Source: Gemmatimonadota bacterium (GTDB lineage: Bacteria > Gemmatimonadota > Gemmatimonadetes > Gemmatimonadales > GWC2-71-9). Taken from it: DNA of 64,000 bases. The stretch's first letter is position 1. The number at the start of each line of letters is the position of its first letter. The stretch is from contig PNAE01000007.1 in assembly GCA_003169895.1 (NCBI GenBank), forward strand, positions 1,135,222-1,199,221, read 5' to 3'. This document shows positions 11,819 to 48,364 of the stretch, one piece after another. The position numbers and the translations under genes were made by a program. The notes under the pieces were generated by a model. It saw nothing but the letters and a program-made list of their open reading frames with translations, searched no databases and was not told where the DNA came from.

Positions 11819-11940
11819 TTGTCACCCTGAGCGAAGCGAAGGGGCGGAGTGATGACTTAGTACCAAGTTCCGCCCCTTCGCCTGCGGCTCAGGGTGACAA
11901 GGGCGCCACTCCGCCCCTTCGCCTGCGGCTCAGGGTGACA
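11819..11940. repeat. REP-like palindromic element (one forward arm, two reverse arms)
   Basis: cttgtcaccctgagcgaagcgaaggggcgg ... ccgccccttcgcctgcggctcagggtgacaa ... ccgccccttcgcctgcggctcagggtgaca. Confidence 0.8.
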
Positions 11941-14479: not shown

Positions 14480-14497
14480 ACCGCTCAGCAACAATGT

Positions 14498-14535
14498 GAA
14501 AACGGGCGGGCCACTCGGTGGGCCGCCCGTTTTTC
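14498..14535. terminator. Bidirectional rho-independent terminator
   Basis: gaaaACGGGCGGGCCactcggtGGGCCGCCCGTttttcg: a GC-rich stem flanked by an A-tract and a T-tract, between convergent genes. Confidence 0.8.
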
Positions 14536-15714: not shown

Positions 15715-15745
15715 GAATGGAAATGTAGCGGCAGGCTTGAGAAGC

Positions 15746-15856
15746 TTGTCACCCTGAGCGCAGCGAAGGGGCGGAGCGTGGTACTAAGGCGCCATCCCGC
15801 CCCTTCGCTGCGCTCAGGGTGACAAACCGCCCCTTCGCTGCGCTCAGGGTGACAAA
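15746..15856. repeat. REP-like palindromic element (one forward arm, two reverse arms)
   Basis: ttgtcaccctgagcgcagcgaaggggcgg ... ccgccccttcgctgcgctcagggtgacaa (x2). Confidence 0.8.
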
Positions 15857-15883
15857 CGTCTCTCGTCTCTCGTCTCTCCTGCT
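15857..15883. repeat. Solitary tandem-heptamer arm (3 x CGTCTCT + CCTGCT)
   Basis: Identical to the distal part of the right arm of the 29000-29143 inverted repeat. No partner arm nearby. Confidence 0.6.
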
Positions 15884-15884
15884 T

Positions 15885-16709
15885 CTACGTCTGACACCGC
15901 CAGCAAAACACCGTGCTTCGCGCGTCGATCGCGTGTGTGCTCACGAGGCGCGTGCCGCACACAACGCACGGCTGGCCCTCGCGGCTGTAGACAACGATCT
16001 CGAGCTGAAAGCTGCCCGGCTGTCCGGCGCCGGTGACGTAGTCCCGGAACGTGGTGCCTTCGCTCGCGATCGCCGCCTGGAGAATCCGCCGGACCTGCCC
16101 GTGCAGGTTGAGCAATTGCTTGTGGGGCACCAGCCGCGCCGGCTTGGACGGATCGATCCCGGCGGCGAACAGCGCCTCGGTCGCATAGATGTTCCCCACG
16201 CCGACAACCATCCGCTGGTTCATGAGGACCTTCTTGATCGGCGAGGCGCTCCGGCCGAGCCGGTCGGCGAACAGCTCGGCGGTAAAGTCCGGGTCGAGCG
16301 GCTCCGGGCCGAGGCGCGCCTGATAGGCCTGCCATCCGCTGGCATCGAGCCAGCGCAACGTTCCGATGCGCCGCACGTCACGGTACACCAGCAAACCGTG
16401 ATCGCTGAGCCGGCACTGCAGCACGGCGTACTTCGACTCCGCGGCGGTCAACTCGCGATCGAAATACAGCAGGGCGCCGGTCATCCCCGGTTGCACGGCA
16501 AGGATGCGGGTGTCGGTGTGAATCAGGGCATGCTTCGCGCGACGGTCGACCGCGGTGATGACGCGCCCCGGGAGTTGGCGAAGCAGGGTGCGCTTCGAGA
16601 CGCCGTCGAGGAGGTCGTCATGCGACAAGGTGGCGGCGATGATCCGGCGTCCGACCAGGCGCGGGCGAAGGCCGCGGACGATGGTTTCGACTTCGGGGAG
16701 TTCTGGCAC
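15885..16709 (-). CDS. mutM: Formamidopyrimidine-DNA glycosylase
   Basis: MPELPEVETIVRGLRP N-terminus (catalytic Pro2), H2TH region, and C-terminal zinc finger CVVCG...CWRCQ. Confidence 0.92.
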   Translation of the reverse strand: MPELPEVETIVRGLRPRLVGRRIIAATLSHDDLLDGVSKRTLLRQLPGRVITAVDRRAKHALIHTDTRILAVQPGMTGALLYFDRELTAAESKYAVLQCRLSDHGLLVYRDVRRIGTLRWLDASGWQAYQARLGPEPLDPDFTAELFADRLGRSASPIKKVLMNQRMVVGVGNIYATEALFAAGIDPSKPARLVPHKQLLNLHGQVRRILQAAIASEGTTFRDYVTGAGQPGSFQLEIVVYSREGQPCVVCGTRLVSTHAIDARSTVFCWRCQT

Positions 16710-16759
16710 GAGAGAAGATAGACCGTATCTTTCCGATAACTATTTCACGGGACGCTATA

Positions 16760-17062
16760 GTGTCCGTAAAGACAGTTACCGTCGACCGCTACGTCGTCGA
16801 TACCCTGCTCGGGGACCTGGTGGGGCACGACCACCGGGCATCGTCGTTCCTGGTCTACCTCCACCTGGCTACCCGGCTGGCGGCTGGACGGCAGCGCCGG
16901 GTCACCGCGTCCTATGCCGACCTGGGGCACGGCACCGGGCTCAGCAAGAGCGCGGTGCAGGCAGCGGTCCGCAACCTCAAGCGGCGTCGGCTGGTGCGCG
17001 TGGAGCGAACCAGTTCCACGGCGACGCCGGTGTATGAAGTGCTGCGGCCGTGGAACAGGTGA
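16760..17062 (+). CDS. Small winged-helix DNA-binding protein (function unknown)
   Basis: 100 aa. SYADLGHGTGLSKSAVQAAVRNLKRRRLVRVER looks like an HTH plus wing. GTG start, divergent from mutM. Confidence 0.5.
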   Translation: MSVKTVTVDRYVVDTLLGDLVGHDHRASSFLVYLHLATRLAAGRQRRVTASYADLGHGTGLSKSAVQAAVRNLKRRRLVRVERTSSTATPVYEVLRPWNR

Positions 17063-17167
17063 GACGTGAGACGTAAGAGGTAAGAGGTAAGAGGTAAGAG
17101 GGGCGCCCCGCGTTGCGCTGGAGCCCCCCTCTTGCCTCTCACCTTTCACCTCTCACCTCTTACCTGT
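17055..17167. repeat. Tandem-heptamer inverted repeat between convergent genes (probable terminator)
   Basis: Left arm (GTGAGAC)x2 (GTAAGAG)x4. Right arm cccctcttgcctctcacctttcacctctcacctcttacctgt. Both flanking ORFs end inside the arms. Confidence 0.7.
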
Positions 17168-18423
17168 TCCCGCCACCCGATGTCCCGCCGGAACTGCTTC
17201 CCTTCGAACGTGATCCGCTCGGCGGCCGCGCGACTTCGCTGGCGTGCTTCGTCGAAGGTCGCTGCGAGCGCGGTCACGGCGAGCACTCGACCGCCGTTGA
17301 CGACGAGCGCGCCATCGTCGCGGAGCTGCGTCCCGGCGTGATAGACGGTCACGCCCGGTCCCAGGTCGGTGGGAATGCTGATGACATCCCCCTTGACTGG
17401 ATGGTCGGGATATCCCGCGGCCGCGAGGATCGTGGTGACCGCCGCGCCCGCGCGGATTCCGATCGTGGGCAGGGGTTCGCCGCGCGCGGCGGCATCAAGC
17501 AGCGCCGTGAGCCCCGATGCAATCAGCGGGACCACGACCTGGGTTTCGGGATCACCCAGCCGGCAGTTGAACTCGACCACATTCGGGGTGCCGTCCGGGT
17601 GCAGCATCAGGCCGGCGTACAGCACCCCGCGATACGGAGCGCCGCGGCGCTCGAGTTCCCGGAGCGTCGGTAGCAGCACCGAGTCGGTCACCCGCCGGAG
17701 CACGGCCGGAGTGGCAATCGAGACAGGCGCATACGCGCCCATGCCGCCGGTATTGGGGCCGTGGTCACCGTCGAGCAACCGCTTGTGATCCTGCGCAGCG
17801 GGAAGCAACCGGACTTCGCGGCCATTGGTGACGGCGAGCACCGACAGCTCTTCACCTTCGAGGAACTCCTCGACGACCACGACGCTGCCGGCGTCGCCAA
17901 AGATGCGCTCGGAGAGCATGGCGCGCGCCGCATGTCGGGCTTCGTCTCGAGTGAGACACACGATCGCGCCCTTGCCGGCAGCGAGCCCGGACGCCTTGAC
18001 CACGAGCGGCTCGGCGTGCGAGTCGATATACGCGAGTGCCGCGCCGGCATCGGTGAACGTGCGACTCCGCGCCGTCGGCACTCCGGCCGCGTGCATGACC
18101 TCCTTGGCGAAGGCCTTCGAGGCTTCGATGCGCGCACCGTTCGCGCCGGGACCGAACACGGTCCGACCTTCGGCGCGGAGGCGGTCGGCGAGGCCAAGGG
18201 CTAGCGGCAACTCCGGGCCCACTAGCGTAAGGTCGATGGCATGGGCATCCACCGCATCGGCGATGCGGTCGAGATCATCGGGCGGGATCGGGAGGTTGGT
18301 GGCGACGGCCGCCGTGCCGGGATTCCCGGGCGCGACGTAGATGTGGTGGGACGGATCATCGGCAGCGAGGGCGAGAGCGAGTGCATGCTCCCGGCCGCCG
18401 CCGCCGATGATGAGCAGCCTCAC
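17146..18423 (-). CDS. purD: Phosphoribosylamine-glycine ligase
   Basis: MRLLIIGGGGREHALALAL and an ATP-grasp core, full length. Confidence 0.92.
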   Translation of the reverse strand: MRLLIIGGGGREHALALALAADDPSHHIYVAPGNPGTAAVATNLPIPPDDLDRIADAVDAHAIDLTLVGPELPLALGLADRLRAEGRTVFGPGANGARIEASKAFAKEVMHAAGVPTARSRTFTDAGAALAYIDSHAEPLVVKASGLAAGKGAIVCLTRDEARHAARAMLSERIFGDAGSVVVVEEFLEGEELSVLAVTNGREVRLLPAAQDHKRLLDGDHGPNTGGMGAYAPVSIATPAVLRRVTDSVLLPTLRELERRGAPYRGVLYAGLMLHPDGTPNVVEFNCRLGDPETQVVVPLIASGLTALLDAAARGEPLPTIGIRAGAAVTTILAAAGYPDHPVKGDVISIPTDLGPGVTVYHAGTQLRDDGALVVNGGRVLAVTALAATFDEARQRSRAAAERITFEGKQFRRDIGWREQVRGER

Positions 18424-19530: not shown

Positions 19531-19674
19531 AGTGTCATCCTGAGCGAAGCAACGGCGAAGCCGTTGCGAAGTCGAAGGACCTCGGCTCCGCGCGAAAAAG
19601 GCTGGCCTTGCCTTGCGGCGCCGAGGTCCTTCGACTTCGTGCGGCCTGCGGCCGCACTTCGCTCAGGATGACAA
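19531..19674. repeat. REP-like nested palindrome (GTCATCCTGAGCGAAGC variant)
   Basis: Outer arms are gtgtcatcctgagcgaagc / cttcgctcaggatgacaa. Inner arms are gaagtcgaaggacctcggc / gccgaggtccttcgacttc. The right arm supplies the last codons and stop of the adjacent gene. Confidence 0.8.
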
Positions 19675-22804: not shown

Positions 22805-22813
22805 ACACAGCCG

Positions 22814-22890
22814 CCATGAGCCATGAGCCCCCCCGTTGAGCTCGGCCAGGCCCGGCCGCGCCCAAGGCATCGCCGCATGGCTCATGGCTG
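22814..22890. repeat. Tandem-heptamer inverted repeat (CCATGAG x2 / CTCATGG x2)
   Basis: ccatgagccatgagcc ... gcatggctcatggctg, separated by about 47 nt. Confidence 0.55.
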
Positions 22891-24262: not shown

Positions 24263-24352
24263 GACAGCGTCGCCCCGAGCGTAGCGAGTGGTTAGTGTCA
24301 TCCTGAGCGCAGCGAAGGAGCGAACGCCCTTCGCTACGCTCAGGGCGACATC
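24263..24352. repeat. REP-like palindromic element (two forward arms, one reverse arm)
   Basis: gtcgccccgagcgtagcgag ... gtgtcatcctgagcgcagcgaaggagcg ... cgcccttcgctacgctcagggcgac. Confidence 0.75.
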
Positions 24353-26271: not shown

Positions 26272-26904
26272 CTAGAGCTGCCGCGCGATCCCGAGCGCGA
26301 ACCCGGTCCGCCACATCGCTCGCTGCCTGAAGCCTTCGGGCAATTCCTCAGTCGTGAAAACGGAAGGGCCCGCCGTGACTTCCCCGCGCACCACGGCGCT
26401 CCAGCGTCGGCCGATCGGGAAGTCCGCTTCAAGCGCGCCGTGTGCGGCGGCACGCCACCGCGCCGGCGCTCCTGCGAAGCTCCACCGGTCGCCGCCCAGT
26501 CCCACGCCGGCACGGAGCGTCGGTGTCGACGACTGACCCGCGATCCGGACCCCAACCTCGAAGCCGGCTCCCCACGCGTCGAAGGCACCGAATGTGGTGA
26601 CTGCCGCCGAGGCACTCACCTCACTCAGGTCGGCAGTGCTGTGATGGCCCTCCACGCCGACCCGCCATCGCCCGGTTTCACGGGCGACGGCGACCGTCAG
26701 GGTGGCGGGATGATCGGCGTGGAACTCCGGATGCGCGGGGTCGACGTCGTCGCGCGCATCACCGTGCGACGTCGCGCTACCGGACAGCAACGCGATGCGC
26801 CATTGAGCGTTCAGGGCACTTGAGGCGGTACACACGAGGAGGCAGAGCAGGAAGTGTCGCACGAAATCCTCGGGAAGAAGACCGTGCGAACCTCGCTGCC
26901 CCAC
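26272..26904 (-). CDS. Hypothetical secreted protein, possible small outer-membrane beta-barrel
   Basis: Signal-like FLLCLLVCTASSALNAQ and an alternating hydrophobic pattern. The opposite-strand ORF is Arg-rich shadow. No family recognised. Confidence 0.45.
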   Translation of the reverse strand: MGQRGSHGLLPEDFVRHFLLCLLVCTASSALNAQWRIALLSGSATSHGDARDDVDPAHPEFHADHPATLTVAVARETGRWRVGVEGHHSTADLSEVSASAAVTTFGAFDAWGAGFEVGVRIAGQSSTPTLRAGVGLGGDRWSFAGAPARWRAAAHGALEADFPIGRRWSAVVRGEVTAGPSVFTTEELPEGFRQRAMWRTGFALGIARQL

Positions 26905-27032
26905 ATCAACGGAACGTCAACAGTTCACGCATGGCTTCCTTGATGTACCCGGCGAGAGTCCTTTTCGATGGCAGGTCCTTGACCGAGTCCGTGATTGTGA
27001 GTCGTCGGGAAGAAAACGAGAAGCCCGTTCTG

Positions 27033-27914
27033 TCAGCGCATCGTCCAGGTTTCGCCGAGCGTTGCGGCCACGATCCGACTCGCATCCGGCCCGGCAGCGG
27101 CGTGCAGGCGGGCCAGCGGCTCGGCCATCGGCTCGCGGCTCAGCCGGAAGGTCGAGTGATGCACCGGCATGAACGCACCGGTGCCCAGCTGCTCGGCCAT
27201 GCCCCACGCCTCTTCGGGCGAGCAATGATTCGCGATCCATGGATTGTACGCGCCAATGGGCATGATGGCGAGGTCGACCGCTCCGCCCGCGGCGAGCGGC
27301 CGGAGTGCGTCGGTGCGCGCAGTGTCGCCGGCAAACAGAATGCGGCGTCCGCGAACCGTCAGCAAGAACCCACCCCACCCGCGGTGCCGGTCCCGAAGCA
27401 TCCGTGCGCCCCAGTGCTTCGCCGGCGTGGCCTCGATATCGATCTCGCCTACGCGAGTCGTCTCACCCCAGGCCAGTTCGCGGACGTCACGGAATCGGGT
27501 AAGGAGGTCGCCCAGATATGGTGCCGTCACGACGACCGACGACCGCGGCAACCGGCGCAATGTCGGGATGTCAAGGTGATCGAAGTGCGCATGACTCAGC
27601 AGCACCAGGTCGATCGGCGGAAGTTCCTTGACCCGGAGCGCGGGCGGCGTGAGCCGGCGAACACCGACCTGTACCATCCCCAGCGAGATGCCGACGCGCC
27701 GGCCGAGGACTGGATCGGTGATGACCCAGGTGTCGAACAGCCGCATCAGGACGGTCGAATGACCCAGCCACGCCACCGTGATCCGATCGGACGGCCACGA
27801 CGCCGGATCGGGATGGAGCGGCTTGATGGCGCGCTGCGCCGCGCGGTCCCGCTGCCGGTACAGTTCGGTGAAGCGGGCATAGCGGCGGAGGGCTTCGACA
27901 TGACTCTTGAACAT
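27033..27914 (-). CDS. MBL-fold metallo-hydrolase
   Basis: LLSHAHFDHLD (HxHxDH) and a downstream His/Asp ligand pattern. Confidence 0.8.
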   Translation of the reverse strand: MFKSHVEALRRYARFTELYRQRDRAAQRAIKPLHPDPASWPSDRITVAWLGHSTVLMRLFDTWVITDPVLGRRVGISLGMVQVGVRRLTPPALRVKELPPIDLVLLSHAHFDHLDIPTLRRLPRSSVVVTAPYLGDLLTRFRDVRELAWGETTRVGEIDIEATPAKHWGARMLRDRHRGWGGFLLTVRGRRILFAGDTARTDALRPLAAGGAVDLAIMPIGAYNPWIANHCSPEEAWGMAEQLGTGAFMPVHHSTFRLSREPMAEPLARLHAAAGPDASRIVAATLGETWTMR

Positions 27915-27936
27915 GGACGAAGCTAAGACGTGAGAA

Positions 27937-27970
27937 GTGAGAGGTGAAAGGTGAACCTCTTACCTCTCAC
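27937..27970. repeat. Tandem-heptamer hairpin in a divergent intergenic region
   Basis: GTGAGAGGTGAAAGG tgaa CCTCTTACCTCTCAC. 15-bp stem with one mismatch and one G-U, and a tetraloop. It lies 22-23 nt from both flanking start codons. Confidence 0.7.
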
Positions 27971-27992: not shown

Positions 27993-28436
27993 ATGCGGGT
28001 ATTGCTCCAGCGCGTGTCGCAGGCGAGTGTCACTATCGGCGGGCGCGTCGTTGGCGCGATAGGTGGCGGCTTCCTGCTGCTGGTCGGTTTTAGCCACGGC
28101 GACACCATCGACGCCGTGCGGTGGATGACGGACAAGGTCGCCGGCCTGCGGGTGTTCAACGACGACGACGGGAAGATGAACCGTGATCTCGCCGCCGTTG
28201 GCGGGGCGGTCCTGGTGGTATCGCAATTCACGCTGTACGGCGGTGCGACGAAGGGACGGCGGCCGTCGTTCATCGATGCCGCGCGACCGGAGATCGCGAT
28301 CCCGCTCTACGAAGCGTTTCTGGCGTCCCTCGCGGGTGCTGGGCTCACGGTGGCGAGCGGTGAGTTCGGCGCCGACATGCAGGTCTCCCTGATCAACGAC
28401 GGCCCGGTCACCCTGATGCTGGAGCACCCGGCTTGA
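27993..28436 (+). CDS. dtd: D-aminoacyl-tRNA deacylase
   Basis: MRVLLQRVSQASVTI...GGFLLLVGF...SQFTLYG, full length about 147 aa. The track ORF start (27951) lies inside the repeat. Confidence 0.9.
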   Translation: MRVLLQRVSQASVTIGGRVVGAIGGGFLLLVGFSHGDTIDAVRWMTDKVAGLRVFNDDDGKMNRDLAAVGGAVLVVSQFTLYGGATKGRRPSFIDAARPEIAIPLYEAFLASLAGAGLTVASGEFGADMQVSLINDGPVTLMLEHPA

Positions 28437-29029
28437 CCATCCCGACTCTCGTCCTCGCTTCCGCATCGCCGCGCCGGAAGCAACTGCTTGAAATGTTGCG
28501 GATTCCGGTGCTGGTCCATCCGGCAAACGTGCCGGAGGCCGCGTTGCCCGCTGAGGCCCCCGCGGCCTACGCCCGCCGCCTGGCCCGCGACAAGGCGCGG
28601 GCAGTGCCCGGCCACTATGTCCTCGGGGCCGACACCATTGTCGTGCTCGACGATCGCATCCTCGAGAAGCCCACCGATGACGCCGACGCGCTCCGCATGC
28701 TCCGGGCGCTGCAGGGGCGCACCCATACCGTCATCACCGCCGTCTGCCTCGTCGCACATGGCGCGGAACGTCACGCCATCGACGAGACATACGTCACCTT
28801 CCGGTCCTGCACGGATGATTTCCTGCGCGACTACATCGCCACCGGTGAGCCGCACGACAAGGCGGGCGCCTACGGCATCCAGGGCTGGGGCGCGGCGCTG
28901 GTCGAGCGAGTGGACGGGGACTTCTTTGGCGTGATGGGGTTGCCGGTGCGATTGGTACTGAAACTGCTGGCGGAGGCGGGGTGCGAGTATCGATTTGACA
29001 GCAGGAGAGACGAGAGACGAGAGACGTGA
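28433..29029 (+). CDS. maf: Maf-like nucleoside triphosphate pyrophosphatase
   Basis: LVLASASPRRKQLL...GADTIV...KAGAYGIQG. The last about 10 codons are read from the heptamer repeat. Confidence 0.88.
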   Translation: MTIPTLVLASASPRRKQLLEMLRIPVLVHPANVPEAALPAEAPAAYARRLARDKARAVPGHYVLGADTIVVLDDRILEKPTDDADALRMLRALQGRTHTVITAVCLVAHGAERHAIDETYVTFRSCTDDFLRDYIATGEPHDKAGAYGIQGWGAALVERVDGDFFGVMGLPVRLVLKLLAEAGCEYRFDSRRDERRET

Positions 29030-29143
29030 GACGTGAGACGTGAGACGTGAGACGAGAGAAGGGACAGCCGTAGGGCTGTCATCACACGTGCGGGTTGTTC
29101 TCGTCTCTCGTCTCACGTCTCACGTCTCTCGTCTCTCCTGCTG
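29000..29143. repeat. Large tandem-heptamer inverted repeat between convergent genes (probable terminator)
   Basis: Left arm agcagga(GAGACGA)...(GTGAGAC)x4...gagagaaggg. Central mini-hairpin gacagccgtagggctgtc. The right arm tctcgtctctcgtctcacgtctcacgtctctcgtctctcctgctg has fewer heptads. Confidence 0.8.
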
Positions 29144-30629
29144 TTCCTGCCAATCCCAGCGCCGCAAGCATCGCCCCGGCCTTCGCGATCGTTTCGTTGA
29201 ACTCGGTCTCCGGAACCGAATCGGTCACGATCCCGGCCCCCGCCTGGACATAGGCGGTGTCGCCGTGGAACACGACGGTCCGGATGGCGATGGCGGTGTC
29301 GAGGCTGCGCGCACCGAAGCCGACGTAGCCCACCGCGCCGGCATACGGCCCGCGGCGCGTGACTTCAAGCCCGTCGATGATTTCCATGGCACGGACTTTC
29401 GGCGCACCACTCACCGTGCCGGCCGGGAATGCCGCCGCCAGGGCATCGAGCGCGTCGACACCGGGGCGCAGCGTGCCGCGCACCTCGCTCACCAGGTGCA
29501 TGACATGCGAGTATCGCTCCACCACCATCTGCTCGACGATCCGTACCGACCCGTACTGCGCGACCCGCCCGACGTCGTTGCGTCCGAGGTCAAGCAGCAT
29601 GAGATGCTCGGCGCGCTCCTTGGGATCGGCGCGCATCTCGGCTTCAAGTGCAAGATCGAGCTCGGGGGTCACGCCGCGAGGGCGGGTGCCGGCGATCGGA
29701 CGCACGGTGACCTCATCCCGTTCAACGCGAATCAGCACTTCCGGTGACGCCCCGGCGATGGTCATGTCGCCCAGCCGGAGAAAGTAGCAGTAGGGTGCGG
29801 GGTTGAGTGCACGCAGCCAACGGTAGCTCAGAAACGGATCGGGAGCAGGCGCCACGTCGAGGCGCCGGGAGAGCACGATCTGGAAGGCGTCGCCCGCGGC
29901 GAGGTACTCCTGGCAGCGACGGACGTCGCGGCGGAATGCGTCATCGGGATATACCGATGTCGCGGCGGCGAGCGGGCGCGTCGGCGGCATTGCCAGCGGG
30001 GCGAGGTCGTTCGGTACTGCGAGTCGGCCCAGCCAGTCGTCGCAGTGCGCCTCGGCGGCGGCGATGCGCCGTTCCAGCTCCACGTCGTCCAATCCCGGCG
30101 CCACCGCCACGTTCGCGATCACGATGGCGCGGTGAAACAGATTGTCGAGCACCAGGAGCGTGTTCACCAGCATGACGACCGCGTCCGGAAGACCGCGGTC
30201 GTCTCGCGGTGCGTCCGGGAGTTCCTCCAGCGTCCGGACCACGTCGTAGCCCCAGAAGCCGACCGCGCCGCCGGTGAACCGTGGCAACCCGGCGATCTCC
30301 AGCGACCGATCCTGCCGCAGCAGCGCGCCAAGATGATCGAGCGGAGCCGCGTCCGCTGCCTCCAGCGCCCACGTGTCGTCGTCCAGCAGTCGCTCGACCC
30401 GCTTCCCGCGATACTGGTAGACCGCAAGCGGCTCCGTCGCCAGGAACGAGTAGCGCGCCCAGCGTTCGCCGCCTTCGAGCGACTCCAGCAGAAAGCCGTA
30501 CCGACCGCGATGCAGCTTCGCGAACGCCGACACCGGCGTGTCGCCGTCGAGCACCACTTCACGTGTCAACGGAACGCGCGAATAGCCGTCCTGCACCGCC
30601 GCACGGCAGCGGGTGAGAAGTTGCTTCAT
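29082..30629 (-). CDS. trpE: Anthranilate synthase component I
   Basis: Full-length chorismate-binding fold, with ...GTVSGAPKVRAMEII... and GAGIVTDSVPETEFNET. The C-terminal tail runs into the repeat. Confidence 0.9.
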   Translation of the reverse strand: MKQLLTRCRAAVQDGYSRVPLTREVVLDGDTPVSAFAKLHRGRYGFLLESLEGGERWARYSFLATEPLAVYQYRGKRVERLLDDDTWALEAADAAPLDHLGALLRQDRSLEIAGLPRFTGGAVGFWGYDVVRTLEELPDAPRDDRGLPDAVVMLVNTLLVLDNLFHRAIVIANVAVAPGLDDVELERRIAAAEAHCDDWLGRLAVPNDLAPLAMPPTRPLAAATSVYPDDAFRRDVRRCQEYLAAGDAFQIVLSRRLDVAPAPDPFLSYRWLRALNPAPYCYFLRLGDMTIAGASPEVLIRVERDEVTVRPIAGTRPRGVTPELDLALEAEMRADPKERAEHLMLLDLGRNDVGRVAQYGSVRIVEQMVVERYSHVMHLVSEVRGTLRPGVDALDALAAAFPAGTVSGAPKVRAMEIIDGLEVTRRGPYAGAVGYVGFGARSLDTAIAIRTVVFHGDTAYVQAGAGIVTDSVPETEFNETIAKAGAMLAALGLAGTAGETRDVRRETRDENNPHV

Positions 30630-33331: not shown

Positions 33332-35632
33332 GTGGCACCTGTGCCGAATTATCAAGACGAATGGTTGGCGGCCGTCCTCGGTCCGCTCATTCCAGAAGCC
33401 AAGCTGGCTCGGCTCAAGGACGACACTGAGTCGAAGACGTCACTGTGGGAACGGATCATCGATGCGCGGCTCCTGACCCAGGCCGAGGTCCTCGATGCAG
33501 TTTCCGCCCGGTGCAAGCTGCCGATCGCGAATCTCGAGCTCGCTGGCGAAAGCGGCCGCGACGCATTGCCGGAGCAGCTGGCACGCCGGCACGCCGTGGT
33601 GCCACTCACCGTCACCGACGCGGTGCTCGAGGTGGCCACCAGCAATCCTTTCGACATTGGTGCGGAGCAGGCGCTGGCCTTCGCCACCGGACGCGAAGTG
33701 CGCATGTTGCTCGCGTCGCCGCCCCGGATTCGCGAACGCCTCGACATCCTGTACGGCAGCGCGCAACGCGGCGGCAGTGTCAAGGACATCCTCGGTGGGA
33801 TGGAGGATGTCGACGTTACCGAGCTCCCCGATGCGCAGGACGAGCTCGACGCCGAAGCCGCGGCGGCCGAGGCGAGTTCCCGGCCGATCATCAAGCTGGT
33901 CGACGTGTTATTGGCCGACGGCATCACCAGCCGGGCAAGCGATATCCATATTGAATCCGGCGAGGCGGTGGTGGTCATTCGCTACCGCATCGACGGTGTG
34001 CTGCGGCACGCCATGACGATCCCACGCAAGGCCGGCACGCCGCTGATCTCTCGCATCAAGATCATGTCGGGGCTCGACATCGCCGATCGCCTGCGGCCGC
34101 AGGACGGCCGCGCGCGCGTCGCGGTGAACGGCAATCCCGTCGACCTGCGCATCTCCACGCTTCCCGCAACGCACGGCGAAAAGGTCGTCATCCGTATCCT
34201 GAACACGCAGTCGACCATGCTGTCGCTCGAGGCGCTCGGCCTGTTCGAGGACGAGCAAGCCATCATCAAGAAGCTGCTCAACAGCAAGGAAGGGATCATC
34301 CTCTGCACCGGACCGACCGGTTCGGGCAAGACGACGACGCTGTACTCCTGTATTCGCATGATCGAAGGCGAAGGGGTCAACATCGTCACGGTGGAGGATC
34401 CGGTCGAGTACCGGCTTGGCAAGAACGTCGTACAAGTGCAGACCAACGAGAAAACCGGCCTCACCTTTGCCGCGGCGCTGCGATCGATCCTGCGCCAGGA
34501 CCCGGACATCGTGCTGGTGGGCGAGATCCGCGACATCGAGACCGCCCAGGTGGCAGTGCAGGCGTCGCTCACGGGCCACCTCGTGCTGTCCACGTTGCAC
34601 ACGAACGACGCTCCGAATACGGTCACGCGTCTGGTGGACATGGGACTCGAGGCGTTCAAGATCGGCGCGGCGTTGCGGGGCATCATTGCGCAGCGGCTGA
34701 TGCGCCGCATCTGTCCCGTGTGCCGTGAGAAGCAGCCGCTGAGCGAGCTCCCCGAGCGGTTGCGCAAGTGGGTGCCCGAAGGAGCTACGCTCTGGAAGGC
34801 TATCGGTTGCAGCCAATGCACCCAGACGGGGTATCGCGGCCGGTTCTCGGTGGTCGAAATCCTGGTGATGAACCCCGAAATCGAGCGACTCGTCGGCAAC
34901 AACGGCAACGCCGATGTCATCGCGGTGGCGGCGCGGGCGGCCGGCATGCGGTCGCTGTTTGAGTGCGGGCTCGCGCACCTGCTCGAGGGCCATACCACGG
35001 TCGACGAACTGCTTCGCGTCACCGACGTACCACAGGCACCGGAAGGTGCCGTCAAGGCGAAGGGGAAGTCGAAGGACAAGGCGAAGGGCCGCGCGGGCAC
35101 GACCGGTAACAGCACCCCGGTGGAACCGGCGACCGACGTCGAGACCACCGCCGAGCAAAGCGAGGATGAGCTGTTCGCGGGGATCGAGCTGGTTGATGAG
35201 TCGGACGGGCCGACCGAGCCCGCCGCCGCCGGATCGCGCGCGACGATCCTGCTGGTCGAGGACGAGGACTCACTCCGCCGCGTGATGAAGGACCTGCTGC
35301 AACAGGAAGGCTACGTGATCTGCGAGGCGCGCGACGGTGCCGAGGCCATGGAACAGGTGGACCGCCATAATCCCGATCTCGTGCTGCTCGACCTCAACCT
35401 GCCCAACGTTGATGGTTACACCGTCCTGCAACGGCTCCGGTCCCACCCGCGCACCCAGAACCTCCCGGTCATCATCCTCTCGGCACGAGGCGACGAGGAC
35501 AACGAAGTGAAAGTCCTGCGTCTCGGTGCCACCGATTTCCTCGCCAAGCCGTTCCGGCCGCGCGCGCTGTCGGCGCGGCTCGAAGCGACGCTGGCCAGAA
35601 GCAGGGCGGAAGAGGTCAAAGGTGAGAGGTGA
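33332..35632 (+). CDS. GspE/PilB-family secretion ATPase fused to a C-terminal response-regulator receiver domain
   Basis: T2SSE_N-like N-domain. Walker A CTGPTGSGKTTTLY, Asp/His boxes (VGEIRD, LVLSTLHTNDA), and a tetracysteine CPVC...CSQC. An about 85-aa charged linker, then REC (LLVEDED, LVLLDLNLP, IILSARG, LAKPF) at 35240-35629. Confidence 0.85.
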   Translation: MAPVPNYQDEWLAAVLGPLIPEAKLARLKDDTESKTSLWERIIDARLLTQAEVLDAVSARCKLPIANLELAGESGRDALPEQLARRHAVVPLTVTDAVLEVATSNPFDIGAEQALAFATGREVRMLLASPPRIRERLDILYGSAQRGGSVKDILGGMEDVDVTELPDAQDELDAEAAAAEASSRPIIKLVDVLLADGITSRASDIHIESGEAVVVIRYRIDGVLRHAMTIPRKAGTPLISRIKIMSGLDIADRLRPQDGRARVAVNGNPVDLRISTLPATHGEKVVIRILNTQSTMLSLEALGLFEDEQAIIKKLLNSKEGIILCTGPTGSGKTTTLYSCIRMIEGEGVNIVTVEDPVEYRLGKNVVQVQTNEKTGLTFAAALRSILRQDPDIVLVGEIRDIETAQVAVQASLTGHLVLSTLHTNDAPNTVTRLVDMGLEAFKIGAALRGIIAQRLMRRICPVCREKQPLSELPERLRKWVPEGATLWKAIGCSQCTQTGYRGRFSVVEILVMNPEIERLVGNNGNADVIAVAARAAGMRSLFECGLAHLLEGHTTVDELLRVTDVPQAPEGAVKAKGKSKDKAKGRAGTTGNSTPVEPATDVETTAEQSEDELFAGIELVDESDGPTEPAAAGSRATILLVEDEDSLRRVMKDLLQQEGYVICEARDGAEAMEQVDRHNPDLVLLDLNLPNVDGYTVLQRLRSHPRTQNLPVIILSARGDEDNEVKVLRLGATDFLAKPFRPRALSARLEATLARSRAEEVKGER

Positions 35633-35674
35633 GAGGTGAGCGGTGAAAGGTGACACCTTTCACCTCTATCTCTC
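35612..35674. repeat. Tandem-heptamer hairpin filling the GspE-REC / NUDIX intergenic space
   Basis: (GGTGAGA)x2 GGTGAGC GGTGAAA GGTG a CACCTTTCACC tctatctctc. The core is a perfect 11-bp stem at 35642-35664. Confidence 0.7.
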
Positions 35675-36160
35675 ATGACCACCATCCGCACAGCGCTCGT
35701 CGATGTCTACGTCCTGCGCGGGCGGGGTGAAACGCTCGAGGCGCTGCTGCTGCGCCGCGCCCGCGATCAGGTCCGCGGCGGGACGTGGGAGGCGGTACAC
35801 GGCAAGATCGACGGCGGCGAGACGCCGGTCGCGGCGGCGCGGCGCGAGCTGCGCGAGGAAATCGGCTGCGAGCCCCTGGCGTTGTACAACCTGAGCCGGG
35901 TCGAGCAGTTCTACCTGCACCACGACGACGAGATCGCGCTGGTTCCGGTCTTCGTCGCGTTCGTTGCGGCTGATGCGGTGATCCGCCTCAGCGACGAGCA
36001 CGACACGCTGCTCTGGCTCTCACCCGAAGCGGCCACGGCGCAGTGCACGTGGCCGCGCGCGGCGCGGGCGCTGGAGGATGCGGTCCGGATGCTCGGCACG
36101 GGCAACGCTGGACTGCTGGAGGAGATCCTGCGGATCCCGCCACCGCCTCTTCCAGATTGA
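35675..36160 (+). CDS. NUDIX hydrolase
   Basis: NUDIX box GKIDGGETPVAAARRELREEIG. Confidence 0.85.
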   Translation: MTTIRTALVDVYVLRGRGETLEALLLRRARDQVRGGTWEAVHGKIDGGETPVAAARRELREEIGCEPLALYNLSRVEQFYLHHDDEIALVPVFVAFVAADAVIRLSDEHDTLLWLSPEAATAQCTWPRAARALEDAVRMLGTGNAGLLEEILRIPPPPLPD

Positions 36161-36279: not shown

Positions 36280-37605
36280 ATGGACGTTCGCCACTGGACG
36301 ATCACCGTATTCGCCGCCACCGTGAGCCTTGCGGCGCCGCATTGTCGCGCGGCGGCCCAGGCCTCGGTGATCGATCGCCTGACGAAGGCCGCGCAGGATG
36401 CGGCCAACGCGGGCAAGAAGGCCGTGGCCCAGGAGGTCAATCGGCAGGTCAACAGCGCCGTGGAGGCGGCCGCCGAGCAGGACGTGGCCGACGGGAGCTT
36501 CATCGCGGTGCTGTCGCCGTGGAGTTCCAGCGACGGCACCAAACGGGTGGAGTTGGCGAGGTATTCCGGGGCGGCATTCGTCGTGACCGGCGCGACTGGG
36601 CGCCAGATCGTGGTCTGTGACACCAAGGGCGTGCTGCCGTGGCAAGTGACATTCAACGTCCAGAACAGTCCCGGCGCCGGCGGAGCGACCGGAGCCGCGA
36701 CCGGAGGGACGGCGCTCGCTGGGCGGGGCGGCGGGACGGCGCTCACTGGGCGGGGCGGCGGCGCCGCGCCGTCGGGCCGTGGTGGCACCGGTGCCACCGG
36801 TGCCCCGTCCACCGGGAGTCGCGGCGGAGCGCCACCGGCGAACGGTGGCGGCGGCACATCGGCGCGAGGTGGCGGTGGCACATCGGCGCGAGGTGGCGGT
36901 GGCACATCGGCGCGAGGCGGCGGCTCGCCGGCGGGGAGAGGCGGCGCGGCGGATACTTCGTCGTCAAGAGGTGGCGGGGCTGCTCCCGCCAAGACCGAAT
37001 CGGCCCCATCGGCAAACCAGCGGGACTACCGGTTTCCGTCCAACCAGGTGACCGTCACCCTCCCGACAGTGGGTGCCCGCAGCGGCAACCCGAGCCAGGG
37101 ATCGCTCCGAGTCGGAGATATTTCAGAAACGGTGCTCGCGGGTGCGGCGAAGATCCGGTTCGCGCAGGCGACGTTGCCCGGGCAGGCGGGGCCGCAAGTC
37201 GTCGACTTTGGCGTCGCATTCAAGGCAAGGGTCCTGCCGTCGGGCGAGGCGCCCGTGGGGTGCCTGGCGCCAACTGCCGGCAGGGGCACGCTGGCCGGTC
37301 CGAGTCCGGCCGGCAGAGGCAGCGCTACCGCCGGCCGTGGCGGCACCGCCAACCCGGCGACGAATCCGTCGCCTGCAGCCGTGCCCAATCCCGGTCCGAC
37401 GTTCGCCGCGGGTGATATCCTGACGCCGAAGATCGACAACGTGAAAATGCTCGCCGAGGCGAAGGACAGCGCCAAGGTCGCCACCACAGTCAAGAAGGGC
37501 GATGAACTCGTCTATCTTGGCGACGAGCAGAACGGGTTCGAACACGTGCAGAGCGCGACTGGGGAAGGTTGGGTCAAGAAGGTGCTGGTGATGAAGCACC
37601 CCTGA
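36280..37605 (+). CDS. Secreted protein with Gly/Arg-rich repeats and a C-terminal SH3b-like domain
   Basis: Signal ...VSLAAPHCRAAAQA. GRGGG-type repeats. C-terminal KMLAEAKDSAKVATTVKKGDELVYLGDEQNGFEHVQSATGEGWVKK resembles bacterial SH3. Confidence 0.65.
   Translation: MDVRHWTITVFAATVSLAAPHCRAAAQASVIDRLTKAAQDAANAGKKAVAQEVNRQVNSAVEAAAEQDVADGSFIAVLSPWSSSDGTKRVELARYSGAAFVVTGATGRQIVVCDTKGVLPWQVTFNVQNSPGAGGATGAATGGTALAGRGGGTALTGRGGGAAPSGRGGTGATGAPSTGSRGGAPPANGGGGTSARGGGGTSARGGGGTSARGGGSPAGRGGAADTSSSRGGGAAPAKTESAPSANQRDYRFPSNQVTVTLPTVGARSGNPSQGSLRVGDISETVLAGAAKIRFAQATLPGQAGPQVVDFGVAFKARVLPSGEAPVGCLAPTAGRGTLAGPSPAGRGSATAGRGGTANPATNPSPAAVPNPGPTFAAGDILTPKIDNVKMLAEAKDSAKVATTVKKGDELVYLGDEQNGFEHVQSATGEGWVKKVLVMKHP
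36844..36915 (+). repeat. Near-perfect 24-nt tandem repeat x3 inside the CDS (GGGGTSAR x3)
   Basis: ggtggcggYggcacatcggcgcga repeated three times head to tail. Confidence 0.9.
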
Positions 37606-42966: not shown

Positions 42967-42995
42967 CTGGTGGCTGGTGGGTCATGAGCCACCAG
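42967..42995. repeat. Tandem-heptamer hairpin (CTGGTGG x2 ... CCACCAG) in the tig / response-regulator divergent region
   Basis: ctggtggctggtgg gtcatgag ccaccag, immediately followed by TATAAT (42997-43002), 9 nt before the ATG at 43012. Confidence 0.55.
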
Positions 42996-43011
42996 CTATA
43001 ATCTTCTTGTC

Positions 43012-43401
43012 ATGGCCCGAATCCTTCTGGTTGACGATGACGCGTCCGTGCGCCGGGTGGTGCGGTTGACATTCGAACGCGGCGGATACACGGTCATCGA
43101 GGCGTCATCGGCGTTCGAGGCGCTCGGCATGCTGCGGGGCGACGAATTGCCCGACGCCGTAGTGTGTGACGTCCTGATGCCGGGCATGACCGGGTTGCAG
43201 TTCTACCGGCATCTCGCCGAGCGGGCGCCGAGGTTGCGCCATCGGGTCGTGTTCCTCACCGGCGCGAACCAGGATCCCGACGTGCATCGTCCGATCGAGC
43301 AACTCGGCGTTCCGCTGCTTGGCAAGCTCGGCGACCTCCGGCTGGTGCTCGACGCCGTGCGCATCGCCCTGTTGCGGCCGGACCACGCCGATCCGCCCTG
43401 A
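43012..43401 (+). CDS. Stand-alone response-regulator receiver (CheY-like)
   Basis: ILLVDDD, AVVCDVLMPGMTG, VVFLTG. Confidence 0.85.
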   Translation: MARILLVDDDASVRRVVRLTFERGGYTVIEASSAFEALGMLRGDELPDAVVCDVLMPGMTGLQFYRHLAERAPRLRHRVVFLTGANQDPDVHRPIEQLGVPLLGKLGDLRLVLDAVRIALLRPDHADPP

Positions 43402-45142: not shown

Positions 45143-45168
45143 CACTTCTTTCGTCTCGCGTCTCTCAT
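45143..45168. repeat. Degenerate solitary heptamer arm
   Basis: tcacttc tttcgtc tcgcgtc tctcatt, the complement-type of the GAGACGA/GTGAGAC heptads. No partner arm. Confidence 0.4.
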
Positions 45169-45690: not shown

Positions 45691-47853
45691 CTAATTCGGT
45701 TTCTTGAACTGCTTGTCCAGTTGGTCCCGCTCCTGCTGATGCCGTACGTCCTGTGCCTTCGTCTCGTTCTGCTGCTGTTGTTGCAATTGCGCGGCTGAGA
45801 CGCCCGCTGGCAACTGCTTCAGTTGCGCCTGGTGCCGTGCGGCAAGATCGGCGTCCTCCTTTTGCTGTTTCGCGTTCAGTTGTTTCAGCTGCATCGTCCG
45901 CTGCAGCTGCGTCTTGTCAGGCACGGCGGCAGCCGACGGTGGCGGGTTGCCGCGGCCCGCCGGTGTCGGCTGGGCGGCAGGTGGTGCTGATTGCCTGCCG
46001 CGACCGCGACCCTGATCGGGCGGTGCCGGCTGAGCCGGCGGTGGCGGCACCGGACGTGGTTGGATCGGTGGCGGTGGCGGTGGCGCCGGTACTGGCGCCG
46101 CCTGCGCCGGCGTTGGAGCCGGTGGTGGTTGCGACTGGCGCCCACGTCCGCGACCCTGGGCCGGCGGCGGCGCTGGTGGCAGCGGCGCGGGCGGCGGCGG
46201 TTGCGCTGGCGGCGGCGTCGGTAGCGGCGGGGGGACCTGCGTTGGCTGTTGCGCCGGCGGTCCCGATGGGCGCGGTGGCGGTTGGCCGCGGCCGCGGTCC
46301 TGCGGTGGCGGTGGTGGCGTTGGCGCAGGTGTTGGCTGTGCTGCCGGCGGCCCGCTTGGCCTTGGCGGCTGACCGGGTTGCGGCGGCGGCTGCGTCGTCG
46401 TCGGGGGTTCGCCACGGCCTGGCTGCTGCGTGCCGGGGCGCGGACGGGCCCGCCATTGCGGCGGTGGCGCCGGGGTCACCTGTCCCGCCGGAAGGCCGGG
46501 TGGATGCGGGGCCACGCCCCGGCCGCGACCCTGGTCCGGCATCTGGCCCCGCGGTGGCGCTGCAATCGGCTGTCCCGCAGCCACGGGCGCTGCGCTCGGG
46601 CGGGCCCCCGCGATGTCGGTCGGCCGGACTGGTACGGCAGCGCTCGCCACGGGCCGAGAGCCTTGGAACGCGTCTCGCGGCACCGCCGTCATTGCGCCCG
46701 GCACATTCCGGTTGGCTAGCGGTATCTGATTGACATCGGGGTGACCGAGATCGACGCCGACCCGGACGCCCTGCAGGTTGATGTTGATCCGATTGACATA
46801 CGTGGGACTGGCGCGGTAGGCCGGAACGAACGGTTCGCCGGGTGCGAGCGGCACCCAGCCCACGGCGCCGCCGCTACCGAACGACGCCGATGCGCCCCAA
46901 CCCTGGCCACCAACAAACGCTACCAACGCTGGCGCGTACACCGGGCGCTGGCGTTCTGAGCCGGGCACCCACGCCCAGCGGCCGCGCACCGAGGCCCAGC
47001 GTCCATAATGGAATGGTGCAAAGCCCCACGGCGCATCGTCGATCCAGGTCCAGCCCCATGGCTGTACTGACTCCCAGTGGCCATTGCGGTACGGCGCCCA
47101 GCCGGCAGGAACATCGCGCGGGGTCCACACCGGGCCGTAGTTGGCATCGGTCTGCCACGTGCCGTACGCATCGAGATCGTCGTATCCCACCATGTCACGC
47201 GACACGTAACGTGCCGATGGCAACGCGTCCTCGAGTTGATCCCGCCCGTCCGCCCAGCGTTCCCAATCGTCCGGCTGGATGGCGGCGCTCGTGATCGGCG
47301 GACGGTCGGTGGCAACGATCGTCGCCGACGTCCCCGCGGCCACCTGATAGCTGCGATCGCCAATGCTTATTTCCGCGCCGCCATCGCGCACGGTCACCGT
47401 CGTCCGCCGACCATCGGGCGTCACGTCGACGCGATAGTGGCCCTGGTCCAGCAGCGATATGGCGCCAGTCGGCGTGTCGATCTCGTACACTTCGTCAGCG
47501 CTGAGCTCACGCACGTTCACATCGATGGACCCTTCATCGAGTCGCACCTGGGTGACCGTATCGCTGACTTCGCCGAAGACGAGCGACGTCAGCGGCGCGA
47601 TCCGCACCGCCGACGAACCAAGATGCACTTCGGCTCGCGCGTCGCTGTCCGCCCAGAGCGCGTCACCGCTGGTCAACGGGTAGTTGAGCGACGCCGGCGT
47701 CCAGTCAGTGGCGCCCACGCCGTAGAGCGAGACAGTGCCCTGCATGTCGCTCACACGACCCACGCGCGCCGGTGGATCGACTCCCTGGCCGCACGCTGTG
47801 TTGAGGACGCCGAGGCCGAGGATACCAGTCATGAACAGGTGATGGCGACGCAT
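45691..47853 (-). CDS. FecR-like / DUF6600-like protein with a long Pro-rich linker and C-terminal coiled coil
   Basis: Lipoprotein-like MRRHHLFMTGILGLGVLNTAC, a FecR-like beta region, and a Trp-rich block YGTWQTDANYGPVWTP...GHWESVQPWGWTWIDDAPWGFAPFHYGRWA. About 200 aa of P/Q/A with GRGRG punctuation follows, then a KQL-rich coiled coil. Confidence 0.65.
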   Translation of the reverse strand: MRRHHLFMTGILGLGVLNTACGQGVDPPARVGRVSDMQGTVSLYGVGATDWTPASLNYPLTSGDALWADSDARAEVHLGSSAVRIAPLTSLVFGEVSDTVTQVRLDEGSIDVNVRELSADEVYEIDTPTGAISLLDQGHYRVDVTPDGRRTTVTVRDGGAEISIGDRSYQVAAGTSATIVATDRPPITSAAIQPDDWERWADGRDQLEDALPSARYVSRDMVGYDDLDAYGTWQTDANYGPVWTPRDVPAGWAPYRNGHWESVQPWGWTWIDDAPWGFAPFHYGRWASVRGRWAWVPGSERQRPVYAPALVAFVGGQGWGASASFGSGGAVGWVPLAPGEPFVPAYRASPTYVNRININLQGVRVGVDLGHPDVNQIPLANRNVPGAMTAVPRDAFQGSRPVASAAVPVRPTDIAGARPSAAPVAAGQPIAAPPRGQMPDQGRGRGVAPHPPGLPAGQVTPAPPPQWRARPRPGTQQPGRGEPPTTTQPPPQPGQPPRPSGPPAAQPTPAPTPPPPPQDRGRGQPPPRPSGPPAQQPTQVPPPLPTPPPAQPPPPAPLPPAPPPAQGRGRGRQSQPPPAPTPAQAAPVPAPPPPPPIQPRPVPPPPAQPAPPDQGRGRGRQSAPPAAQPTPAGRGNPPPSAAAVPDKTQLQRTMQLKQLNAKQQKEDADLAARHQAQLKQLPAGVSAAQLQQQQQNETKAQDVRHQQERDQLDKQFKKPN

Positions 47854-48247: not shown

Positions 48248-48364
48248 CTCTCGCCGGAGACGCCGCCCCCGCAGTCGCCAATCTCCCGTCAGTCGCACGG
48301 GCGAGGGACGCACGCCGGACCAGAGCGAGCCGCCCGCTCACCCACGGTGATGGAACGCCGCTGT

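Follow-up and report, generated by a model that had tools for sequence, protein, structure and literature searches.

Heptamer-armed hairpins at the gene ends of a Gemmatimonadota genome: turnover by slippage and arm mirroring, and a possible role at RNA 3′ ends

What is a hairpin whose two arms are built of head-to-tail heptamers, and why does it lie on the stop codons of the genes that meet at it? The question is raised by the spacer between maf and trpE in a 64,000-nucleotide stretch of DNA from a Gemmatimonadota bacterium of soil, order Gemmatimonadales (assembly GCA_003169895.1, contig PNAE01000007.1, positions 1,135,222 to 1,199,221; the whole stretch is called the window below), and by seven further loci of the same stretch that carry arms of tandem 7-mers. 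On balance, we think it probable that these are heptad hairpins of the type known from cyanobacterial STRR sequences, driven by slippage and template switching, and behaving like REP elements or like bidirectional 3′-end structures that do without a U-tract. As far as the compared sequences go, the origin and dynamics of the hairpins (slippage by whole heptads, mirroring of arms, seeding at stop codons and replacement by other small repeats) are demonstrated, and a REP-like or terminator-like role at RNA 3′ ends is the one that we favour.

All eight loci of the initial annotation were re-read base by base in the window, and all are there. Six of them (15857, 17055, 27937, 29000, 35612 and 45143) do form a single family, with units of the form G-W-R-A-R-A-S (GTGAGAC, GAGAGAC, GTAAGAG, GTGAAAG, GTGAGAG), but the locus at 22814 has another unit, that at 42967 has only 2 + 1 units, and those at 15857 and 45143 are single arms. 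The annotation had asked whether tandem 7-mers exceed what chance would give in such DNA, and in the window they clearly do: two consecutive GWRARAS units match 23 times, at the six loci, where shuffled sequences lead one to expect 0.01, and four consecutive units match 10 times against an expectation of 0. The period is equally specific, as exact runs of at least 2.5 units number seven for period 7 and none or one for periods 6 and 8-12 in the window, whilst 107 kb of Gemmatimonadales DNA hold 19 arrays of period 7 and none of periods 8-12. A chance origin of the heptamer arrays is thus excluded. Nor is the maf/trpE element an artefact of assembly, since four assemblies made independently agree on its sequence to the letter; two other contigs break off within the array. 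A TrpE protein exactly like that of the window is encoded on contigs of many samples, including GCA_003169745.1 and contigs of more than 1 Mb, and its nearest named homologues (70-83% identity) carry the label Gemmatimonadales. In passing, four independent short-read contigs (L005, L006, L127 and L129; L-numbers are labels of compared contigs or stretches) end inside the maf/trpE array, a sign that such arrays fragment short-read metagenome assemblies. Rfam 15 at gathering score gave no match anywhere in the window and a tRNA/tmRNA scan of it found none; the units are contiguous and of 7 nt, so that the 24-48 nt direct repeats and unique spacers of a CRISPR are not what is seen.

The largest element shows the architecture best. 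Its left arm consists of three GAGAGAC units, four GTGAGAC units and one degenerate unit, its right arm of about 5.6 units, and a loop of 38-42 nt separates them; outside the heptamers the stem is continued for 7-8 bp by ACAGCAGG / CCTGCTGT. Tandem Repeats Finder returns period 7 in both arms, with 7.9 and 5.6 copies, and an inverted-repeat search pairs them in at least three registers with a complementarity of 93-95%, as anticipated by the initial annotation. The stop codon of maf is the TGA of the fourth unit of the purine arm, and the trpE open reading frame (ORF) crosses the entire right arm to stop in the loop. The hairpin between the 100-aa gene and purD has outer pairs GGAACAGG / CCTGTTCC, and both of these genes take their TGA from an arm. 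So does the GspE-REC gene, from the element at 35608-35670, where the left arm has about seven units and the right arm two or three. Flanking reading frames thus end in the arms, as had been claimed, or, for trpE, span one. The arms of the small hairpin 27923-27970 read GTGAGAA, GTGAGAG, GTGAAAG / CCTCTTACCTCTCACC. Predicted folding energies are -104.4 / -100.3 kcal/mol for 28998-29144 and -79 / -83.5 kcal/mol for 17050-17172, with z scores of about -11 on both strands for these two large elements and of -3 to -5.5 overall for the smaller ones. Coordinates, contexts and individual z scores are collected in Table 1; the gene contexts come from a simple purpose-made ORF caller and agree with the gene calls returned in sequence searches.

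Table 1. Heptamer elements of the window, with their parts, neighbouring genes and folding z scores
Feature	Position	Strand	Parts	Gene context	Folding z
Largest heptad hairpin (29000 locus)	28998-29144	.	outer pairs 28998-29004 / 29138-29144; purine arm 29005-29060; loop 29061-29098; pyrimidine arm 29099-29137	convergent: maf (28433-29029, +) / trpE (29082-30629, -)	-11.4
Heptad hairpin (17055 locus)	17052-17170	.	left arm 17059-17100 (GTGAGAC x2, GTAAGAG x4); loop 17101-17128; right arm 17129-17163	convergent: 100-aa gene (16760-17062, +) / purD (17146-18423, -)	-10 to -11.5
Small heptad hairpin (27937 locus)	27923-27970	.		divergent: metallo-beta-lactamase-fold gene (27033-27914, -) / dtd (+)	-4.7
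Heptad hairpin, nearly loopless (35612 locus)	35608-35670	.		co-directional: GspE-REC (33332-35632, +) / NUDIX gene (35675-36160, +)	-5.5 / -4.7
Solitary pyrimidine arm (15857 locus)	15857-15878	-	CGTCTCT x3	between co-directional genes	
Second-family hairpin (22814 locus)	22813-22888	.	GCCATGA x2 / TCATGGC x2	co-directional: response-regulator HD gene / phosphoglucomutase-family gene	-3.1 / -4.3
Small hairpin, weak member (42967 locus)	42967-42995	.	CTGGTGG x2 / CCACCAG (2 + 1 units)	divergent: trigger-factor / response-regulator genes	-3.8 / -4.5
Degenerate solitary pyrimidine arm (45143 locus)	45146-45166	-	GTCTCGC, GTCTCTC	10 nt past aminopeptidase N gene, co-directional	

How these structures arise and change can be followed in close relatives. 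Contigs L007 and L131, from a strain whose genes are about 97% identical, align to the window everywhere except at the repeat elements. At the maf/trpE junction there are five differing alleles among strains, two of which are otherwise identical and have six and four GAGAGAC units, and at the purD junction the window has 6 + 5 units against 9 + 7 in a related strain, with identical loop and flanks. The expansion and contraction by slipped strands, and the variation in heptad copy number between strains, that had been suspected from the window are therefore borne out at both junctions. The inequality of the two arms holds too, as heptad counts differ between the arms in 37 of 44 hairpin pairs of the genome sample described below (among the matches listed). 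Slippage is not the only process at work. The majority of maf/trpE alleles have a right arm of CTTTCAC units, pairing with the inner left units only, whilst the right arm of the window allele mirrors the left one as an inverted copy, the flanking ACAGCAGG included. Template switching in a quasipalindrome (quasipalindrome correction) rewrites one arm as an inverted copy of the other, and the window allele, mirrored in arm as well as in flank, fits such an event. The C-terminal tails of Maf and TrpE are translated arms, and they vary from strain to strain accordingly.

Whole elements are also lost or replaced. The solitary arm at 15857 is a remnant, as the same site in L131 holds a full hairpin, (GAGAGAC)2 GAGAGAA, loop, (GTCTCTC)3, whose left half is replaced in the window by palindromic repeats of the TGTCACCCTGAGCG type (15739-15862); at other junctions a heptad hairpin in one strain stands where the other strain has a palindrome of this type. 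At the lactamase/dtd junction of L007 the left heptad arm is swapped for a dispersed repeat of about 95 nt. The hairpin at 22813-22888 is kept in L007 with four substitutions, and GCCATGA-family hairpins (GAGCCAT type, GCCGTGA type) occur at further junctions of L007 and L176, so that the 22814 locus represents a genuine second heptamer family.

The elements that take part in these exchanges deserve a description of their own. One is a second dispersed family, palindromic, of the form TGTCA(T/C)CCTGAGCG(A/C)AGCGAAGG.., found inverted and in tandem at 9269-9325, 11820-11940, 15739-15862, 19533-19673 and 24269-24350 of the window. Its members form strong hairpins (z -3 to -9), vary between strains and trade places with heptad hairpins at the same junction, and half a copy sits in the loop of the L133 maf/trpE hairpin. 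The other is a dispersed element at 48286-48416 whose two ends (48286-48307 / 48395-48416) are inverted relative to each other; a piece that matches it at 96% identity takes the place of the lactamase/dtd left arm in L007 (L007 9426-9511). This suggests a small mobile element targeting heptad hairpins.

Comparison with two more distant relatives (L133, L134, L176), whose TrpE is about 80-83% identical to that of the window, separates what persists from what does not. Their maf/trpE junctions again have (GAGAGAC)n..(GTCTCTC)4 hairpins, with different loops. At the divergent lactamase/dtd junction the base stem GGAAGGTAA / TTACCTTCC is conserved, whilst the apex consists of GTGAGAG-type heptamers in the window and of GGCTGGG / CCCAGCC heptamers in L134, and L133 has a plain hairpin there. 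At the tig/response-regulator junction, likewise divergent, a (GCCGTGA)2..(CTCACGG)2 hairpin in a related species stands where the window has CTGGTGG units. Together, these three junctions indicate that hairpins persist in place while their sequence, units and loops turn over. The 45146-45166 arm has no counterpart in the related species. In many Gemmatimonadales, TrpE ends in Arg/Glu/Asp-rich tails of the ETRDERRET type, which suggests that the end of trpE carries arrays throughout the order. A BLAST comparison of the window with the loci retrieved by pattern found the repeats themselves and one conserved gene (glmS region), and no orthologous locus.

The GspE-REC/NUDIX junction has recorded a birth. 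In both relatives the two genes overlap by 4 nt (..AAGAGGTGAC.. in L134), and the window has a tandem expansion of exactly the AAGAGGTGAC junction heptamer, followed by a short inverted copy; the element at 35608-35670 is therefore lineage-specific and clearly was born at a stop codon. Heptad arrays can be seeded by tandem duplication of a stop-codon heptamer, here GAGGTGA.

To what extent is this a peculiarity of one lineage? A scan for four consecutive GTRARAS units, with one genome per species, found at least 119 stretches in many phyla, counts that describe a sample and not a census of each phylum. Among the matches listed are Gemmatimonadales (at least 14 stretches), many Bacteroidota, Anaerolineae, Chloroflexia, Wenzhouxiangella, Nitrospirota, NC10, Verrucomicrobia, methanotrophs and a Bacillota, and 41 viral contigs match GTRARAS heptamer arrays as well. 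Other heptamer families make up 104 of the 337 arrays listed from the matched genomes, which ties the phenomenon to period 7 instead of to one sequence. Loops are unrelated between copies, three of the 44 pairs listed being loopless, and no consistent terminal motif is found on heptad hairpins across the genomes sampled. Some arrays are noteworthy in themselves: those of the GTGAGAG/GAGGTGA kind, seen at 35608-35656 of the window and in Gemmatimonadales L053, L085, L099, L112 and L123; nested hairpins with outer arms of one heptamer family and inner arms of another (L162 1842-2014, a viral contig; L128, L130, L127); and very long single arrays of the heptamer family shared by the six window loci, 42 units at L025 3917-4224 and 24 units at L061 1718-1885, in complete Methylotuvimicrobium / Methylomicrobium genomes, where they are flanked by AGAGAAT and TAGTGAA heptamer arrays.

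Two regularities emerge from this sample, and the counts of polarity, context and stop distance that follow were all taken among the matches listed. The first is polarity: neighbouring arrays are ordered purine arm first, pyrimidine arm second in 44 cases and in reverse in two (p = 3e-11). The search is strand-symmetric, so this is not an effect of ascertainment. The same order is found 3:0 in viral contigs, where the composite hairpin patterns gave 0 and 0 and are uninformative. Heptamer hairpins of unrelated units have A > T in the 5′ arm in 8 of 10 cases, a bias that matches the A-tract / T-tract order of the bidirectional terminator at 14494-14535 of the window. The second regularity is the stop codon. 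The median distance between the array and the stop of an incoming gene is 1 nt, and in 23 of 47 cases the stop lies inside, at -4, -11, -18 or -25, which are the TGA/TAA of units 1-4. TGA or TAA is present in 83-90% of units, and three units in tandem therefore close every reading frame. Single arrays beside a stop codon have their purine strand toward that gene in 24 of 31 cases, and distant single arrays have the pyrimidine strand in 21 of 30 (Fisher p = 3e-4). The idea that polarity comes about because each arm belongs to its own gene end was first rejected, as co-directional single arrays divide 21 to 16 with no overall strand bias; the purine sense of single arrays near stops is a refinement of it.

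Convergent genes flank 43% of the hairpins, the baseline being 18% (p = 3e-4), at least one gene runs into 31 of 37 hairpins, and in co-directional contexts the sense RNA folds more stably than the antisense in 12 of 15 (p = 0.035).

The initial annotation had not recognised a described class of repeat here, but the class has been described before. That heptamer repeats are over-represented in bacterial genomes has been known since 2007, as cited in a passage of PMC4692102, and precedents exist in the convergent GGGAATC pairs of Xanthomonas (PMC4692102) and in cyanobacterial STRR (in passages of PMC2670836). The Xanthomonas repeats (Rehm et al. 2015, PMC4692102) are tandem 7-nt units in 2-26 copies at about 185 dispersed, mostly intergenic sites, with 70-75 convergent inverted pairs per genome that are capable of forming stem-loops, as here; they lie close to where the upstream ORF ends, seldom occur between divergent genes and are not conserved at the same genes in related species. 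All the pairs are convergent, which we read as G-rich arm first. Their unit, however, is G-rich, quadruplex-capable and stop-free and belongs to another phylum, and their arrays follow the ORF at an average of 28 nt (PMC4692102), whereas in the present elements the stop codon is as a rule inside the array or in contact with it.

STRR units are CCCCAGT, TTGGTCA and CAACAGT, other than those found here, and their hosts are low-GC filamentous cyanobacteria. As described in passages of PMC2670836 (e.g., the hupS-hupL hairpins), STRR are intergenic 7-bp tandem repeats that fold into hairpins like ours; roles in transcript stability, translational coupling or termination are proposed there, and polarity and adjacency to stop codons are not reported in those passages. 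The role of both GGGAATC pairs and STRR hairpins is given as unknown in the passages concerned (PMC4692102, PMC2670836). The elements described here share with this type the dispersed head-to-tail 7-nt units in at least 2-3 copies, the inverted convergent arrays, the intergenic position at 3′ ends and the non-conserved copy number and presence, and their units (GTGAGAG, GTGAGAC, GAGAGAC, GTAAGAG, GTGAAAG, GCCATGA) match none of the described families (GGGAATC, GGGGAYT, STRR units, TAACTGA). The TAACTGA repeats of Beggiatoaceae, Cyanobacteria and Bacteroidetes (MacGregor 2015, PMC4679880) resemble ours in being stop-containing intergenic heptamers of distant phyla, but they occur in 169 direct sets against one indirect and just upstream of start codons, not at stops. 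Bidirectional intrinsic terminators, according to the passages of PMC13613805 that cite Ju et al. 2019, are symmetric hairpins between convergent genes (A-tract, GC hairpin, T-tract) with an A/purine-rich 5′ side and a T/pyrimidine-rich 3′ side, whichever strand is read. This order is found here as well, but our elements have no U-tract, their stems are several times longer and they occur also between divergent genes.

REP/BIME of enterobacteria and pseudomonads are dispersed extragenic hairpins at gene 3′ ends or between cistrons, strain-variable, which stabilise the upstream mRNA. REPs are palindromes of fixed sequence, 20-40 nt long, which bear a conserved GTAG head and come with a RAYT transposase, whereas the elements here are slippage-prone tandem units without fixed sequence or length; units, lengths and loops differ between copies, and no RAYT gene was searched for. 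Quasipalindrome template-switch mutagenesis, known from Ripley and from the Lovett laboratory, is a mutational mechanism and not a class of elements, and it explains the rewriting of the maf/trpE arms, flanking bases included, but not the period of 7. What appears to be new in the literature searched is the GTRARAS unit family with its spread across phyla, the almost absolute polarity, and the physical link to stop codons, through which protein tails are rewritten; searching for the repeat unit strings gave unrelated eukaryotic matches only, and searching for Gemmatimonadetes repeats gave nothing.

The reading that we favour joins these observations as follows. Arrays gain and lose whole heptads, and one arm can be rebuilt as an inverted copy of the other, adjacent non-repeat bases included, which fits template switching. 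The order is fixed: a purine arm bearing TGA/TAA, placed at the incoming gene's stop codon or directly beside it, then the loop, then the pyrimidine arm. Transcribed as part of a 3′ untranslated region or as intercistronic RNA, the elements would form very stable stem-loops that would block 3′ exonucleases and/or end transcripts from both directions, the pyrimidine-rich 3′ arm standing in for a U-tract through the weak hybrid of its RNA with DNA. On thermodynamic grounds, RNA:DNA hybrids should be weakest where pyrimidine RNA pairs with purine DNA, and the purine-then-pyrimidine order would put it just where a U-tract would sit. Changes in heptad number would tune the length of the stem and rewrite the C-terminal tails of the neighbouring proteins. 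The 3′-end role is preferred because of the extreme stability of the hairpins, their enrichment between convergent genes, their persistence at junctions despite turnover and their A-tract/T-tract-like polarity.

As to termination proper, the GC-rich hairpin of an intrinsic terminator is present. The absence of a U-tract noted by the initial annotation stands, as does the single canonical bidirectional terminator of the window, at 14494-14535, with AAAA, hairpin and TTTTT. Among the eight loci, a terminator scan lists only the small hairpin at 42970-42999, with a tail AATCTTCTTG that is not a U-run, and canonical terminator and promoter scans of the window found no excess over shuffled sequence. 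The loops do not appear to hold a core terminator either, as just 6 of 44 fold better than shuffles, with L017 as a clear exception.

Several observations weigh against a 3′-end role. No U-run follows the arms where they were read directly (the 29000, 17055, 27937 and 35612 loci). Divergent genes flank 6 of 37 hairpins, which is the background rate, and this, together with the birth of one element inside an overlapping gene pair, means that the elements are not simply terminators; at GspE-REC/NUDIX a terminator would split an operon, since the genes overlap in relatives. Strong structure occurs in only about 9 of the 35 intergenic regions of the window, consisting of the heptad hairpins and the separate palindromic family, which leaves the majority of genes without one. 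In some strains the two arms have poorly matching unit types. The excess stability of the sense RNA, seen in n = 15 cases, could reflect transcription-linked C-to-T mutation rather than selection, and convergent spacers are also those which best tolerate neutral insertions. Finally, the gene contexts in the genome sample come from the same kind of simple purpose-made ORF caller as those of the window.

Some of these points make a neutral origin a serious rival, if in our judgement an unlikely one: heptamer microsatellites would arise and multiply through slippage and fold-back template switching in places under weak selection, such as gene ends and convergent spacers, without any function, and an array against a gene end would be tolerated only in the orientation that supplies stops in all three frames, hence the polarity. 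Its strength lies in divergent placement at baseline, in the de novo birth of one element inside an operon junction, in the permissiveness of convergent spacers and in the majority of intergenic regions that have no such element. The extreme turnover between strains with about 97% identical genes, the free variation of protein tails and the stops carried by 83-90% of units agree with it as well. It sits less easily with hairpins that keep their junctions from one species to another even as their sequence is exchanged, with a polarity that holds between divergent genes too, where no ORF enters the element, and with sense RNA that is the more stable in 12 of 15; moreover, the GGGAATC pairs of Xanthomonas are stop-free in either orientation and nevertheless all convergent (PMC4692102), which we take as the same G-rich-arm-first order.

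A broader synthesis can be drawn up, and we consider it doubtful in its entirety. The elements would form one cross-phylum class, seeded at stop codons (often at a Shine-Dalgarno/stop overlap, GAGGTGA) and mirrored by template switching. Their purine-pyrimidine order would be kept as a U-tract-independent bidirectional 3′-end signal by which ribosomes, too, are halted in all three frames; the footprint of a single-strand protein, or two helical turns per three units, would set the period of 7, and slippage would serve as a tuning knob of expression.

The period invites a further explanation, namely that the arrays are binding sites for a protein covering 7 nt of single strand (e.g., one with a cold-shock domain), which would coat one arm and so melt or lock the hairpin, regulating termination or translation. 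It would explain why the period is specifically 7 across many unrelated units, CspB reportedly binds directly repeated heptamers, one molecule on each, for the TAACTGA repeats Csp, S1 and CsrA have been proposed as binders (both PMC4679880), and T/U-rich heptamers are preferred by cold-shock proteins (PMC7704496). But the many different units in the same genomes argue against a sequence-specific binder, the high-GC units GTCTCAC and CTCTCAC are not U-rich, and the partner is purely hypothetical, so that we hold this to be quite improbable.

Slightly less probable still is a translational element, in which ribosomes that reach the stop codon would be retained or let go by the hairpin, with effects on coupling, re-initiation or stalling. 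It is attractive that (GTGAGAG)n is a rotation of (GAGGTGA)n, a Shine-Dalgarno core, that a (TCACCTC)n arm mimics the anti-Shine-Dalgarno tail of 16S rRNA, and that GTGAGAG is the dominant unit of Gemmatimonadales (82 of 215 among the matches listed). Arrays begin at stop codons, one of them derives from the stop/start overlap AAGAGGTGAC, and the right arm of 35608-35670 adjoins the NUDIX start codon. For comparison, Liang, Rudd and Deutscher are said to have described, in 2015, REP elements within 15 nt of a stop codon. On the other hand, many units are not Shine-Dalgarno-like (GAGAGAC, GTGAGAC, GTGAAAC, GCCATGA), where the flanking genes converge there is no gene downstream for an element to couple to, and Bacteroidota, in which Shine-Dalgarno pairing is little used, have the same arrays.

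A mobile element akin to REP or to a miniature inverted-repeat transposable element (MITE), with the heptamer arrays as terminal inverted repeats for a transposase, would account for the 44:2 polarity, for the A(G/A)CAGG / CCTG(C/T)T termini that two window elements have in common and for the small repeats that insert into or beside hairpins, but it is the least credible of all and was set aside, because loops are unrelated or absent and so offer no conserved core, units per arm vary freely, termini are not shared in other genomes, target-site duplications are missing at the borders examined, one element is a visible expansion in place of its local junction sequence, and no transposase was seen nearby, though no search was aimed at transposases.

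A few features of the window and its relatives stand apart from the heptad hairpins. Just past the small hairpin at 42967-42995, a perfect TATAAT lies 9 nt before the ATG of the response-regulator gene at 43012 (window 42997-43014), and the transcript may be leaderless or nearly so. Long ORFs contain G-rich tandem repeats with units of 27, 24, 15 and 9 nt, at 36702-36923 (ORF 36280-37605) and 46019-46331 (45.7-47.9 kb region); their periods are divisible by 3, so presumably they encode repeat-containing proteins. Strains also differ in gene content at intergenic junctions, with an extra DUF5655/DUF1801 gene in L007 (7873-8475, against window ~26904-27033) and a PIN toxin with its partner in L132 (438-1105, against window 16709-16760).

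In conclusion, the window and its relatives amount to a clear natural-history record of birth at a stop codon, slippage by heptads, mirroring of arms and replacement, from which two testable rules follow: the purine arm comes first (44:2, among the matches listed) and the array lies on the stop codon. The elements rewrite the annotated C-termini of neighbouring proteins. If the hairpins do end or stabilise transcripts, they would explain how 3′ ends are defined in high-GC lineages with few canonical terminators, and would add to gene expression a layer that can be tuned by slippage.

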